This document shows positions 58,889-63,971 of a stretch of DNA of 64,000 bases, in pieces. Source of the DNA: a bacterium. GTDB taxonomy: Bacteria; Bacteroidota; Bacteroidia; Chitinophagales; JADIYW01. The DNA is taken from assembly GCA_037189845.1 (NCBI GenBank), contig JBBCIS010000008.1, positions 120,645 through 184,644 on the forward strand. The letters are read 5' to 3'. A program made the translations under genes and the position numbers. The notes under the pieces are model-generated. The model saw nothing but the letters and a program-made list of their open reading frames with translations. It had not been told where the DNA came from and ran no database searches. Positions within the stretch are counted from its first letter, which is position 1. Each line of letters opens with the position of its first letter.

Positions 58889-59563
58889 ATGAAAATAAAC
58901 AATGTTCTGTTGCTGCTGATAAGCGCAGCTTGCCTGTTGAGCTGTCATTCAAATTTAAAAGAAGAGAAAAAGCAACAGGAAAATAATTACGTCTTCTTTC
59001 TGCACAATAAGTTTCTGGAAGATAATGTGTCAGGAACATTGGATCCTAAGTACAACACTAAGGCAGAATATAATGAGATCGTTGAGTCTTTTAAAAAAGA
59101 TGGGTTTATCGTAATCAGTGAAAAAAGAAACCCAAAGACCAACGGAAAAGCGTATGCTCAAAAAGTGGTATTACAAATTGATAGTCTGATTGCAAAAGGA
59201 GCAAACCCTCAACATATTACTGTAGTGGGAACATCCAAAGGCGGTTATATTGCACAATTTGTCTCTTCTTATGCCGGAAATCCCGATCTGAATTTTGTAC
59301 TCATAGGTTGCTACCAGGAGTCTGATTTGAATACATTTCCTGAGATAAATTTTTGTGGAAATATCTTAACTGTTTATGAAAGGTCCGATACGTTCGGAGT
59401 ATCAGCTATTAAAAGAAAAGAGCTTTCACAGCTTCCCGTCGGACATTTCAAAGAAATCGAAGTCAACACGGGATTAAAGCACGGCTTTTTGTATCCTGCA
59501 TCAGATGAATGGATAAAGCCGGCCAAAATGTGGGCGAGACAAAACTATGATTTGAAAGAGTAG
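58889..59563 (+). CDS. Alpha/beta-hydrolase fold lipoprotein
   Basis: Lipobox LLSC; GTSKGG nucleophile elbow, GLKHGF. Confidence 0.75.
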   Translation: MKINNVLLLLISAACLLSCHSNLKEEKKQQENNYVFFLHNKFLEDNVSGTLDPKYNTKAEYNEIVESFKKDGFIVISEKRNPKTNGKAYAQKVVLQIDSLIAKGANPQHITVVGTSKGGYIAQFVSSYAGNPDLNFVLIGCYQESDLNTFPEINFCGNILTVYERSDTFGVSAIKRKELSQLPVGHFKEIEVNTGLKHGFLYPASDEWIKPAKMWARQNYDLKE

Positions 59564-59648: not shown

Positions 59649-60018
59649 ATGACATTCAGATATGCCCGGCATACAGCCGATTTAAAAAGAATAGAGGAAT
59701 TTTATACAGTAATTGTTGGTCTTGAAAAATTAGGAGGATTTCAGGATCACGACAACTATGATGGCATCTTCTTAGGATTTCGGGATCAAAGCTGGCACCT
59801 GGAATTTACAGTTTCCGATGAAAATCCGGTGAGTAAATTTGATGAAGATGTTTATGTAAAGACGGAAATAGAGCGCAGCTATCAGGAAACGCATTACAGC
59901 CAATATTATCCCGATAGAAACGCCCAAAAATCCATACTGGCAAAAGTCTGGATTACAGATTGCGGATCCTGACGGATATAAAATCATTTTCGCTATCAGA
60001 CAAACCCCGGCTTTCTGA
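59649..60018 (+). pseudogene. VOC/glyoxalase (YycE-like) gene, frameshifted
   Basis: RYARHT, HDNYDGIFLG, WHLEFT in frame 1; KNPYWQKSGLQIADPDGYKIIF in another frame ending TGA 60018; shift near 59870-59878. Confidence 0.75.
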
Positions 60019-60082: not shown

Positions 60083-61966
60083 ATGAAACAAAATTTAATA
60101 ATTACAGGAATTCTAACAATCATCACGCTTTTCATTGATCCCGTTCAGGCACAAAAAAAAAGCTACTCTGCTCAGATTGACAGTATTCTGCAAACAACGC
60201 AGCCAAGATCTTTTAACGGAGTAGTAGTTGTATCACAAAATGGCAAGACGCTTTATTCCAAAGCCTATGGATATTCAGATTTTAACAAGAAAAAACCACT
60301 CGATATTTCGGACAGATTTTCTACTATGTCTTTAGCCAAGCAAATTACTGCGACACTCATTCTGCTGGAAGTAGAGAAAGGGACAATTGATTTGCATACA
60401 CCTATCAGAAAGTATTTGCCTGATCTGAAATACTCATGGGCGGATACAGTGACAGTTCATCATTTGCTGAATAATACTTCAGGGTTACATAGTGAAAGTA
60501 TAGATCAGCCGCTCAAATTTATTCCGGGAACAACATTCAGCTATTCCAATATCGGATTTTCTATTGCAGCAAAGGTACTGGAAGCACAATCCGGTAAAAG
60601 CTATCGGCAGCTGGTCACTGAATTATTTTCAAAATGTGGAATGACACAAAGCGCATATCCAACAAAAAAGAACAGATCTATGCTTTCGAAAGGGCATACT
60701 ATTAAGGAAAACGGAGATGCTGTCCTGAATAAGAGCATTAGCTTTCAGCCGACTCTTTTCCCCGGAAGTCATTTAATGGTGACAGCAGGCGATCTGGCAT
60801 TGTGGAATGAATGTCTGCACAATGGAAAGCTATTACAACCTGCTACTTACGATTTGATGGTCAATTATAGTACAACAGCTGTTCATCCTTTGTTTAGCAA
60901 AGAACCTGTCGGATATGGCTATGGATTGCGCATCAATGAAAAAAACGGCTTTTATGAAATAGGCCATACCGGATTTCACTCCGACGAAGGTTTTACTGCA
61001 GTGAATTTATATTATCCTGAAACCAATACCAGTGTGGTCGTTCTGGAAAATCAGGCAAACGAAAACTTTGACATTGCCTATCATTTTGAGCAGGAAGTCA
61101 GAAAAATAGTACTTAATAGCGAGCTTGTCAAAACTGTATCAAATCATGGCATCAACTCGTTGAAACAACAAATCAGTTCAATCATAGCTGGTAAAAAGGC
61201 AACAATCGGTATAGCTGTTTTGGGGCCGGATAGCAGCTCTATTGATTTTGATGGCGACAGCTTTTTCCCGATGCTGAGCACATTCAAGTTTCCTGTTGCA
61301 TTGACTGTTTTAAATAAAGTGGAGAAAGGGGAGCTATCCATGAATCAAAAGATATTCATTAAAAAAGAGGAGTTGCTGGAAAATACCTGGAGTCCTTTCC
61401 AAAAGAAGTTTCCCGAAGGCAATATTGCTATAACTATAGAAGAAGCGTTGACGTGGGTGACCTCTTACAGTGATAATAATCTTACAGATATTTTATTGAG
61501 ACTAATCGGTGGAACTGGACAAGTGGCTCAATTTATTGACAGCGATCAATTTATTATTAAAAACAATGAGGAAGATATGCATCAGAACTGGGATGCACAA
61601 TTGGTCAATAAAATTACACCAAAAGAATCTATCCGTTTGTTACAGCAATTTGATAGTGAAAAAATGTTGAATCAGGAACACACCCAATGGCTGTACAATG
61701 CTATGGTAAATAGCAATACCGGTCTGCAGCGTTTAAGAGGCAAGCTCCCTCAGGAAGTGATAGTCGCACACCGTACAGGGACTTCTTTTACCAATGATGC
61801 AGGGTTGACAGGTGCCATCAATAATTTCGGAATCATAGAGCTGCCGGACAAACAAAAAATATACATTGCCGTGTTTGTACATAATACAACGGAAGCGTTC
61901 AGCAAAGGAGAAGAAATCATTGCTGATATTGCAAAAGCCGTGTATGACTATTATCTGAAAAAATAG
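60083..61966 (+). CDS. Fusion of a class C-like serine hydrolase and a class A (A2-like) beta-lactamase
   Basis: One signal peptide; domain 1 SLAK, YSN, GHTG; domain 2 STFK, SDN, NEEDMH, HRTG; ATG at 60083 preferred. Confidence 0.85.
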   Translation: MKQNLIITGILTIITLFIDPVQAQKKSYSAQIDSILQTTQPRSFNGVVVVSQNGKTLYSKAYGYSDFNKKKPLDISDRFSTMSLAKQITATLILLEVEKGTIDLHTPIRKYLPDLKYSWADTVTVHHLLNNTSGLHSESIDQPLKFIPGTTFSYSNIGFSIAAKVLEAQSGKSYRQLVTELFSKCGMTQSAYPTKKNRSMLSKGHTIKENGDAVLNKSISFQPTLFPGSHLMVTAGDLALWNECLHNGKLLQPATYDLMVNYSTTAVHPLFSKEPVGYGYGLRINEKNGFYEIGHTGFHSDEGFTAVNLYYPETNTSVVVLENQANENFDIAYHFEQEVRKIVLNSELVKTVSNHGINSLKQQISSIIAGKKATIGIAVLGPDSSSIDFDGDSFFPMLSTFKFPVALTVLNKVEKGELSMNQKIFIKKEELLENTWSPFQKKFPEGNIAITIEEALTWVTSYSDNNLTDILLRLIGGTGQVAQFIDSDQFIIKNNEEDMHQNWDAQLVNKITPKESIRLLQQFDSEKMLNQEHTQWLYNAMVNSNTGLQRLRGKLPQEVIVAHRTGTSFTNDAGLTGAINNFGIIELPDKQKIYIAVFVHNTTEAFSKGEEIIADIAKAVYDYYLKK

Positions 61967-61994: not shown

Positions 61995-62498
61995 GTGATA
62001 GACGAAATCGTCAGAATAGAAAACTCGTTACTAAAAGTATATGAGCTGAAAATTTCAGATCTTACTGAAGATCATGAGTGTGAGGAATATTCTGGATTTA
62101 ATTTTCAAATCAATAACCGGAGAGTAAAGTTCAGAAAGGCGAAAATAACACCTAAGAAAACAGGACTATTTGTCACTTTATGGAAAAGAAATTCAGAAGG
62201 GGATACGATACCTTTTCATGTAGACGATGACTTTGATTTCTATATCATTGCTGCAGAACAAGATCAGAATTTTGGATTTTTTCTTTTCCCCAAAGCAGTT
62301 TTAAGCGAAAAGCAGATCCTGACGAATGATAGTAAAGAAGGGAAAAGAGGATGTAGAGTTTATCCCAATTGGTGTATTCCTGAAAATAAGCAAGCACAGA
62401 AAACCAAAATGTGGCAAACAAAATACTTTATTGATTTTTGTAAAAAGGAAGAAGATATTTTTGTAGATTTTGAGCGGATATTTTTTAGTGAACAATAA
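61995..62498 (+). CDS. MepB family protein
   Basis: FRKAKITPKKTGLFVTLWKR, FFLFPK, GKRGCRVYP.W. Confidence 0.85.
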   Translation: MIDEIVRIENSLLKVYELKISDLTEDHECEEYSGFNFQINNRRVKFRKAKITPKKTGLFVTLWKRNSEGDTIPFHVDDDFDFYIIAAEQDQNFGFFLFPKAVLSEKQILTNDSKEGKRGCRVYPNWCIPENKQAQKTKMWQTKYFIDFCKKEEDIFVDFERIFFSEQ

Positions 62499-62777: not shown

Positions 62778-63971
62778 CTATTTGTTCAGTTTAGGAGCTA
62801 TTCTCAGTAGGATCATTGTCAAAACTGCCAGTGCGAATGTTGTAGCAAATAAAGTAAGAGCTGTTTCACCCTGAAAAATCCCGATAGCTGCGGCTACTGC
62901 TGCACCTAATCCCATTCTCGAAAATCCTCCCAATGCCGATGCTGCACCAACATTACCTGTAAACGGCACCAATGAAGCAGCTGTCGTATTGGGATTGATA
63001 AACCCGGTTAAGAATAAGATAGAAAAAGAAGCCACAACCATCCATTTGTATTGAATATGTTCGTTGAAATGTATCATCAGCATCGCTATAAAAGTGACGA
63101 TACACAACAAGACAGAAACCACGTTGGCAATTTTGACATAATGTACATACTTTGTAATGACGCCATTCAGATAGCTTCCTCCGATAAATCCGGCCGCATT
63201 TACTGCAAATACAATGGAAAAAGTCGATTTGTCTAATCCGTACAACGTCAGAAATATAAATGAAGCCGAGCTGATATATGCATACAAAACAGACATGGAT
63301 ACACTGCCAGCCAGCGTATAGGTCAGAAAAGTCCTGTTTTTAGAAATTTCAAAATAATCACCTGCAATCTTTTGTACACTGAGCTTATTGGAATGCATGT
63401 AAATGCTGGTCTCCGGCAGGAAGAAAAAAATCATGAGCATGACCAGAGAAGAAAAAAATGTCAGAAAGAAAAAGATATATCTCCAGCCGATAGTCTCTAC
63501 GAAAAAGCTGCCTATGCTGGGTGCGATCAGAGGTGCGACTCCCATGACCAGCATCAGTGAGGAAAAAGCTTTGGCCCTTTGATCTCTTTCAAACACATCA
63601 CTGATGATCGCATTGGAAGCGACCATACCTACGCAACCGCCCAAAGCCTGTAGCAGACGCATCCCTGTCATTGTTTGGATATCAGGTGACAATGCACAAC
63701 CCAATGCCGCAATCGCATATATCAGGAGACCAAACAATAGTGGTTTTTTCCTGCCGTACTTATCTACTATCGGTCCATAAATGAGTTGTCCGATAGCGAT
63801 TCCTATAAAATAGGATGTCAGTGTAAATGCTACCTGCTTCTCATTAGTGCCAAAGTCTTTAGCTATCTGCTGAAATCCGGGCAGATACATATCTATAGAA
63901 AATGGTCCGAGAGCTGCTAAAATTCCCAACAATACGATCAGGAAAGTTTTATTGATAAGTGCTTGCGACAT
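62778..63971 (-). CDS. Bcr/CflA family MFS multidrug efflux transporter
   Basis: PFSIDMYLPGF, GQLIYGPIVDKYGRKKPL, RLLQALGG, APLIAPSIG, LPET. Confidence 0.95.
   Translation of the reverse strand: MSQALINKTFLIVLLGILAALGPFSIDMYLPGFQQIAKDFGTNEKQVAFTLTSYFIGIAIGQLIYGPIVDKYGRKKPLLFGLLIYAIAALGCALSPDIQTMTGMRLLQALGGCVGMVASNAIISDVFERDQRAKAFSSLMLVMGVAPLIAPSIGSFFVETIGWRYIFFFLTFFSSLVMLMIFFFLPETSIYMHSNKLSVQKIAGDYFEISKNRTFLTYTLAGSVSMSVLYAYISSASFIFLTLYGLDKSTFSIVFAVNAAGFIGGSYLNGVITKYVHYVKIANVVSVLLCIVTFIAMLMIHFNEHIQYKWMVVASFSILFLTGFINPNTTAASLVPFTGNVGAASALGGFSRMGLGAAVAAAIGIFQGETALTLFATTFALAVLTMILLRIAPKLNK

Follow-up and report, generated by a model that had tools for sequence, protein, structure and literature searches.

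A natural fusion of an S12-type serine hydrolase with a class A beta-lactamase in Bacteroidota and its link to a widespread gene pair

In a stretch of 64,000 nucleotides from an uncultured, soil-type Chitinophagales bacterium (contig JBBCIS010000008.1 of assembly GCA_037189845.1; the whole stretch is called the window here), one gene at positions 60083..61966 of the forward strand, with 627 codons and a stop, encodes a protein (P0001) in which an S12-type serine hydrolase is joined to a class A beta-lactamase. We put the probability at about 70% that this fusion is a real, maintained and exported two-enzyme protein, combining a working A2-type class A beta-lactamase with a competent S12 hydrolase outside class C, that it had a single origin, and that its role is tied to beta-lactam exposure. 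Both its architecture and its phylum differ from those of the class C/class D fusions of Betaproteobacteria, the only form in which natural two-headed beta-lactamases are known. The value of the finding lies less in the fusion alone than in a testable link, found throughout the phylum, between an unnamed hydrolase family and beta-lactamases.

The fusion gene and its history

The gene is a single open frame from the ATG at 60083 to the TAG at 61964-61966 (+), with a product of 627 aa. A longer alternative frame opens at the TTG at 59960; the ATG at 60083 agrees with the N-termini of five aligned homologues. Pfam assigns residues 46-333 to PF00144 (E 4e-55) and residues 384-599 to PF13354 (E 2e-36), both well above chance level. 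The N-terminal domain (N-domain) contains the motifs SLAK at residues 83-86 (S83-L-A-K86, 60329-60340, +), YSN at 154-156 (60542-60550, +) and GHTG at 294-297 (H295-T-G297, 60965-60973, +). The C-terminal domain (C-domain) contains STFK at 399-402 (61277-61288, +), SDN at 463-465 (61469-61477, +), NEEDMH at 495-500 with E496 and H500 (61565-61582, +), and HRTG at 563-566 (R564-T-G, 61772-61780, +). An earlier interpretation made from the letters of the window (the sequence-only reading) had described one open reading frame with one signal peptide and two catalytic sets, and every motif that it listed is present.

The sole signal peptide of the fusion is N-terminal (MKQNLIITGILTIITLFIDPVQA|QKK; residues 1-23, 60083..60151, +). 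Read against the homologue alignment, it looks like a type I signal with a predicted cleavage site at VQA|QKK. The lipobox Cys, which is present in most relatives, is gone from the window protein and from its nearest relative, and the AlphaFold2 (AF2) model has a predicted local distance difference test score (pLDDT) below 50 over residues 1-25. The S12-type domain, similar to the R61 DD-peptidase, was delimited to residues 24-346 (60152..61120, +) by PF00144, the AF2 model, and Foldseek and profile matches. It is followed by an inter-domain linker, VKTVSNHGIN, at about residues 347-356 (61121..61150, +), which was placed by comparison with unfused pairs and lies within the range of about 61100-61160 that had been proposed for the junction. 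Both length (6-12 residues) and sequence of the linker differ among fusions, and its pLDDT falls below 50 at residues 352-355. The class A domain, of a subclass A2-like, RASA/CME/TLA-like type, occupies residues 357-627 (61151..61963, +) and begins at its own mature N-terminal helix, where the stand-alone relatives carry a signal of 20 aa.

Over 2484 nt, the window is identical both to a contig of an NCBI assembly (702 kb) and to an independently built Logan contig (12 kb; run SRR27999908), and both contigs encode the exact protein with the same neighbours. A search of 5.8 billion proteins returned five further clusters, defined at 90% identity and coming from unrelated samples, that share the two-domain architecture. 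These metagenomic fusions are 624-633 aa long, 59-67% identical across their full length, and display the same junction logic with no second signal peptide. In a tree of N-domains from the six fusions and 79 stand-alone relatives, the fusions form one clade with long internal branches, at a Shimodaira-Hasegawa-like approximate likelihood ratio (SH-aLRT) support of 99. For the closest two fusions, P0003 and P0004, which are 86% identical, the ratio of nonsynonymous to synonymous substitution rates (dN/dS) is 0.11 in the N-domain and 0.10 in the C-domain, and values of about 0.1 indicate purifying selection on both halves. Because the two assemblies are identical, five diverged homologues exist, the fusions form one clade and dN/dS is about 0.1, we conclude that the fusion is old and maintained by selection; misassembly and a newly lost stop codon are both rejected. 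The sequence-only reading had taken the gene for a true fusion and had proposed a search for homologues of the same architecture; the five additional clusters, their grouping in one clade and the selection on both halves bear it out.

The ancestry of the fusion can be read from stand-alone relatives of its N-domain. Scanning one genome per species from 185,579 species, we found 80 loci with a stand-alone 351-aa homologue of 50-68% identity, in genera including Flavobacterium, Chryseobacterium, Epilithonimonas, Pedobacter, Sphingobacterium, Dyadobacter, Chitinophaga and Taibaiella. In 26 of the 80 loci, the same strand carries a class A beta-lactamase gene at most 1 kb downstream, and in 21 of those 26 the gap from the hydrolase stop to the beta-lactamase start is 2-12 nt. 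The majority of the downstream enzymes are from a CGA/CIA-like clade, share about 42% identity with the C-domain of the window protein and score above the SubclassA2 cut-off. Three others fall into the clade of the window protein, from Flavobacterium sp. (55%), Chitinophaga dinghuensis (59%) and Taibaiella chishuiensis (62%). In the tree of stand-alone hydrolases, genera of different classes are intermingled on short branches, which points to a horizontal spread of the hydrolase.

Comparison of the pairs with the fusions identifies what distinguishes them. A lipoprotein signal (L-S-C) is usual in the stand-alone hydrolase, whose C-terminus in unfused pairs is ...S-x-L-L-K; the downstream class A genes encode their own signal peptide, a 20-residue signal with which the beta-lactamase opens (...FAQ|N). 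Neither stop codon, nor 2-12-nt spacer, nor second signal peptide remains in the fusions, where a variable linker of 6-12 residues takes their place. An alignment (A4) of the fusions with stand-alone class A proteins used pieces from the loci with the signals trimmed off. The fusion is a Rosetta stone for a widespread operon pair. We propose that it would have arisen once, from a tightly packed pair of S12 hydrolase and class A beta-lactamase genes that occurs across Bacteroidota; a small deletion would have taken out the stop codon, the spacer of 2-12 nt and the second signal peptide of the ancestral pair, and purifying selection would have kept the fusion since.

Partners of the hydrolase family

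The partnership of this hydrolase with beta-lactamases goes beyond the forward fusions. An exhaustive HMMER search through 1.84 billion representatives showed that the opposite order, class A followed by S12, also exists in metagenomes, in four clusters (P0246, P0249, P0253 and P0262; locus L108 and others). In a protein of 586 aa, P0064, this S12 hydrolase is joined to a CHM/BMHC-like metallo-beta-lactamase (MBL) of subclass B1 that scores above the B1 cut-off; the protein is present in at least three sequencing runs (loci L003-L005), with an alpha/beta hydrolase gene and then a CGA/CIA-like class A gene downstream. An MBL gene lies immediately 3' of the stand-alone hydrolase in Flavobacterium aquicola (L057), and an MBL-fold gene adjoins the fusion P0006 downstream. 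Since the partners of the hydrolase, adjacent or fused, include two lineages of class A enzymes, placed before or after it, and a B1 MBL, the job of its family is most likely tied to beta-lactam exposure. Such a link by operon or fusion was not found described for the known S12 enzymes. The second commonest neighbour of the stand-alone hydrolase is a 308-aa alpha/beta hydrolase, found at 20 loci.

Three further domain combinations were noted among the proteins collected. P0280 (527 aa) has a class A domain and a C-terminal alpha/beta hydrolase, P0317 (775 aa) has an alpha/beta hydrolase, an S12 domain and a dienelactone-hydrolase-like domain, and P0336 (755 aa) has OstA/LptD_N and a class A domain.

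The main rival explanation is a neutral fusion of neighbours, in which two enzymes with unrelated substrates were joined by small deletions and have persisted since both halves still work. The very small gaps of 2-12 nt fit this explanation, as do the diverse fusions of other neighbours (224-aa domain with S12, class A with alpha/beta hydrolase, S12 with MBL) and the full-length AF2 model, which shows no confident inter-domain contact and has a predicted template modelling score (pTM) of 0.61, compared with 0.90 for the N-domain alone. Moreover, a pattern scan of the 185,579 species genomes confirmed 95 relatives, and the forward fusion was not found among them. However, the adjacency recurs with three kinds of beta-lactamase, in at least eight genera and in both orders, which is far beyond a random neighbourhood, and the fusion clade is old and under purifying selection. 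We therefore regard neutral joining as a minority possibility, and a maintained protein of two working enzymes as the better account.

Several observations weigh against that account. No beta-lactamase lies within 8 kb of the stand-alone hydrolase in 51 of the 80 genomes. In the tree of C-domains the fusions are not resolved as one clade, and a single origin is still compatible with it. The SubclassA2 equivalog model (NF012099) gives 309 bits for the whole protein and 312 for the C-domain, just below its cut-off of 320; an unfused clade-mate from L062 also falls under this cut-off, with 287 bits. The Ser and Lys of the SxxK motif are gone from the S12 domain of P0246, and with catalytically dead S12 domains in both P0246 and P0262 a purely catalytic shared role does not fit. 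With exported hydrolase genes packed so tightly, fusions could be common and almost neutral; adjacency would then prove co-regulation and not biochemical coupling. Finally, AF2 does not confidently predict the relative orientation of the domains in the fusion, and we can for this reason only infer how they act: the short flexible linker would tether them, and independent action is most likely.

The two catalytic domains

We read the N-domain as a probably active S12 hydrolase of the group of the R61 DD-peptidase and D-stereospecific peptidases (MEROPS S12), on the basis of motif conservation, of the order of profile and fold matches, and of the distinction between HTG and KTG. PF00144, the SxxK, YxN and H/K-x-G motifs, and the fold that define S12 or R61-type enzymes are all found in it. 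Among 70 relatives, the catalytic residues are strongly conserved: S83 in 69/70, K86 in 68/70, Y154 in 70/70, N156 in 61/70, H295 in 62/70 and G297 in 70/70. The third motif is H295-T-G and not the K315-T-G of class C. A His in the third motif is a feature of the R61 DD-peptidase, and class C beta-lactamases have Lys at this place (KTG). No NCBIfam model reaches its cut-off on the N-domain; the best is a D-aminopeptidase model with 76 bits, and the class C model (NF033085) gives 47 bits against a cut-off of 415.

A profile of 70 N-domain sequences, searched against solved structures, matched Pab87 (E 1.6e-45), the alkaline D-peptidase ADP (E 2.9e-44), Flp (E 8e-41), the D-stereospecific hydrolase dHy1 (E 3e-37) and the R61 DD-peptidase (E 5e-37), and class C enzymes followed at E 5e-22 or weaker. 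Foldseek with the full-length model returned class A matches only, so a separate AF2 model of the N-domain was built (pLDDT 93.6, pTM 0.90). Its top matches are Flp, a Bacillus halodurans penicillin-binding protein, Pab87, R61 (TM-score 0.77), D-amino-acid amidase, ClbP and DltE; structures of class C come after the D-peptidases and DD-peptidases, in the same order as in the profile search. The N-domain resembles R61, ADP of Bacillus cereus, Pab87 of Pyrococcus, Flp and FmtA of Staphylococcus aureus and the D-amino-acid amidase of Ochrobactrum in its SxxK/YxN/H-T-G motifs and fold, with TM-scores of 0.71-0.77. It differs from them in sequence, at about 20-24% identity, and constitutes a distinct Bacteroidota subfamily, usually a 351-aa lipoprotein.

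Class C identity of the N-domain was considered and rejected, given 47 of the 415 bits demanded by the class C model, the HTG third motif and the precedence of D-peptidases over class C enzymes. The description of this domain as class C-like in the sequence-only reading is apt at the level of the fold and does not extend to a class C beta-lactamase; its proposal that the domain may be a peptidase or esterase agrees with both the profile and the fold matches, where DD-peptidases and D-stereospecific S12 hydrolases come first.

These results bear on the possibility of a true double beta-lactamase. LRA-13-type "bifunctional" beta-lactamases, which combine class C and class D, occur in Massilia, Duganella, Janthinobacterium and the Telluria group (PMC5967600, PMC13436346, PMC6131288), and the class C/class D type, named as the precedent in the sequence-only reading, is the only natural beta-lactamase fusion described in the literature searched. 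Like them, the window protein is a single exported chain in which two serine-hydrolase folds of the penicillin-recognising kind each have a catalytic serine, and it is natural, chromosomal and from environmental bacteria. In contrast to their class C and class D domains in Betaproteobacteria, it joins an S12 DD-peptidase-like domain to a class A domain in Bacteroidota, and its N-domain is probably not a beta-lactamase. With no class D domain in the fusion, and an N-domain that fails the class C model, it lies outside "class SCD" and is analogous in layout only. A divergent class C-like N-domain that widens the hydrolytic spectrum of the fusion would nevertheless be in keeping with the PF00144 fold with SxxK and YxN, with the weak class C model matches, and with the repeated partnering of this family with further beta-lactamases, which resembles the class C/class D fusions (PMC5967600). 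We consider such a second beta-lactamase unlikely, in view of the R61-like HTG motif where class C has KTG, the low class C score, and the D- and DD-peptidases, which far outrank class C in profile and fold searches. A class A/PF00144 fusion or operon pair was not found described in the literature searched, the coverage of which is incomplete, so that this absence is not proof.

The N-domain would act on a D-configured peptide, amide or ester. We consider three possible roles: a D-peptidase that binds penicillin and has to be shielded from the drug, a DD-peptidase that tolerates beta-lactams and takes over cell-wall trimming as a back-up, or an enzyme whose substrates are the drugs themselves or the products of their ring opening.

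The C-domain scores 251 bits alone, and the whole protein 258 bits, with the NCBIfam class A model (NF033103, bla_class_A), above its cut-off of 200. The leading models are RASA, SubclassA2 and CGA/CIA, and the cut-off of every allele family is missed. The RASA model (NF040609) ranks first with 390-393 bits, below its cut-off of 600, and by these scores the C-domain is a relative, not an allele, of the RASA family. It is 61% identical to RASA-1, and its nearest stand-alone enzymes are chromosomal ones of Elizabethkingia, Chryseobacterium and Riemerella, at 60-66% identity. The nearest solved structures are TLA-1 and TLA-3, then PER; the TM-score of the C-domain is 0.95 to TLA-1 and TLA-3, with a root-mean-square deviation of 1.1-1.3 Å, and 0.93-0.95 to PER-1 and PER-2. 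The top-ranking models and the closest structures are in line with the affinity to subclass A2 suggested beforehand. RASA-1 (Riemerella), CME (Elizabethkingia), CGA/CIA (Chryseobacterium), TLA-1, PER and VEB are its subclass A2 extended-spectrum relatives. The C-domain shares the STFK/SDN/E166...H170/R-T/A-G motifs of the RASA/CME/TLA kind, and differs from stand-alone A2 enzymes in having no signal peptide of its own and in its place behind another enzyme.

The class A residues S70, K73, S130, D131, N132, E166 and R234-T-G are all present in the window protein, with E496 of NEEDMH at the position of Glu166 in an alignment with RASA-1 and TLA-1. The RTG in place of KTG had been pointed out from the sequence; the substitution is real, and it is not unusual. 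Arg occupies position 234 in 111 of the 120 closest stand-alone enzymes (RTG 65, RAG 36, RSG 10), and the third motif of RASA-1, an active enzyme, is RAG. RTG as an oddity was therefore rejected, Arg being the norm in this clade. RASA-1 increases the minimum inhibitory concentrations (MICs) of penicillin and ampicillin in Escherichia coli (PMC10899037). Since Arg234 is the norm in the clade and RASA-1, which has it, raises MICs in E. coli, the C-domain is most likely an active penicillinase or extended-spectrum enzyme. By homology, its substrates in the periplasm would be penicillins and, probably, some cephalosporins. No other full class A gene is present in the source genome.

A class A domain that has decayed, or has been repurposed as a pseudo-enzyme serving as a binding module, would recall two relatives: the reverse-order P0262, without catalytic residues in either domain, and the fusion P0005, which appears to have Tyr in the Glu166 column. 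For the window protein this is very improbable, as all class A catalytic residues are present and the model reaches a TM-score of 0.95 to TLA-1 with pLDDT above 92. Of the six forward fusions, P0005 (locus L105 6001-7893) carries NYFEIH in place of the NE(E/x)DMH that is shared by the other five. P0262, in which the catalytic residues of both domains are gone, looks like a double pseudo-enzyme.

Least credible is an assembly artefact, or a stop codon recently lost in the source genome only, which the sequence-only reading had named as what would overturn it (a misassembled junction or a stop loss absent from homologues); this is effectively refuted already by the identical sequence in two assemblies, by the five diverged homologues from other samples with shared junction logic and no second signal peptide, and by dN/dS of about 0.1 on either side of the junction.

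Neighbouring genes and the source genome

Upstream of the fusion, a gene at 58889..59563 (+) encodes a 224-aa lipoprotein with the GxSxG-like motif GTSKGG, which is a recurrent partner of the S12 hydrolase. No sequence match to this protein was found in Pfam, NCBIfam or the PDB. In six genomes the gene next downstream of the stand-alone S12 gene encodes a protein 54-67% identical to it, and a 79%-identical 224-aa gene lies upstream of the nearest fusion, P0002, together with the same YycE-like gene as in the window. In P0256, an N-terminal domain of about 210 residues precedes the S12 domain, and direct reading shows that this domain and the 224-aa open reading frame of the window share YVFFLHNKF, GTSKGGYIAQ and NTGLKHGF. 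Seven more representatives at 50% identity (P0271, P0278, P0287, P0296, P0335, P0353 and P0371; 523-548 aa) have, judged by match position, an N-terminal extension of about 210-225 residues before the S12 match. Together these sequences indicate a domain family that is missing from the catalogues and is tied to the S12 hydrolase by Rosetta-stone fusion. The GxSxG-like motif and weak Abhydrolase_5 matches in the fused relative suggest that the 224-aa protein is hydrolase-like.

Between the 224-aa gene and the fusion lies a frameshifted gene of the YycE-like, glyoxalase-fold type (59649..60018, +; PF22658). Compared with a 125-aa homologue in L104, frame 0 encodes the first about 70 residues and frame +1 the remainder (...AIRKRIT..PKNPYWQK..DPDGYKIIFAI). 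It is either a pseudogene or the result of a sequencing error.

A more far-reaching proposal, which we offer as tentative, is that the 351-aa S12 family is an unrecognised accessory of beta-lactam resistance or catabolism in Bacteroidota, working with the adjoining class A beta-lactamase, of two lineages, or with the B1 beta-lactamase. It might process ring-opened beta-lactams in a second step of detoxification or catabolism, as an amidase or esterase of penicilloate or cephalosporoate, or be a beta-lactam-tolerant DD-peptidase that sustains the trimming of the cell wall in the presence of the drug; the window fusion would then be the Rosetta stone of this pathway and the 224-aa GTSKGG lipoprotein its third member. 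The larger point is that a widespread, horizontally mobile pair ties an uncharacterised S12 hydrolase to several classes of beta-lactamase. If the hydrolase aids resistance or beta-lactam breakdown, it would represent a new accessory resistance function, which current catalogues of resistance genes would miss because no NCBIfam model above its cut-off names the hydrolase. Should it make no such contribution, the locus would remain a clear natural case of evolution from operon to fusion with loss of an internal signal peptide.

The source genome comprises 4.09 Mb in 15 contigs and is 100% complete, and its TypA protein shares 83-91% identity with proteins assigned to uncultured Chitinophagales. 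The fusion gene is absent from five genomes of the same genus, and more distant relatives have separate genes only, of at most 57% identity, the full-length ones of at most 41%. The fusion is for these reasons accessory in the source lineage. Synteny with genomes of the same genus is limited to the major facilitator superfamily (MFS) transporter gene, the sole shared flanking gene found, which is on a short contig. Scans of the locus for composition and for promoters and terminators revealed nothing distinctive.

A MepB-like gene (61995-62498, +) opens 29 nt past the fusion stop, and a gene for an MFS efflux transporter of the Bcr/CflA family (62778-63971, -) is convergent to it; both belong to drug-associated families. 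The source genome also contains a second beta-lactamase, a subclass B1 metallo-enzyme at G000:C4:110099-110743 (locus L110), which scores 268 bits, above the cut-off. Its gene sits in an open frame of 351 aa, longer than usual for B1.

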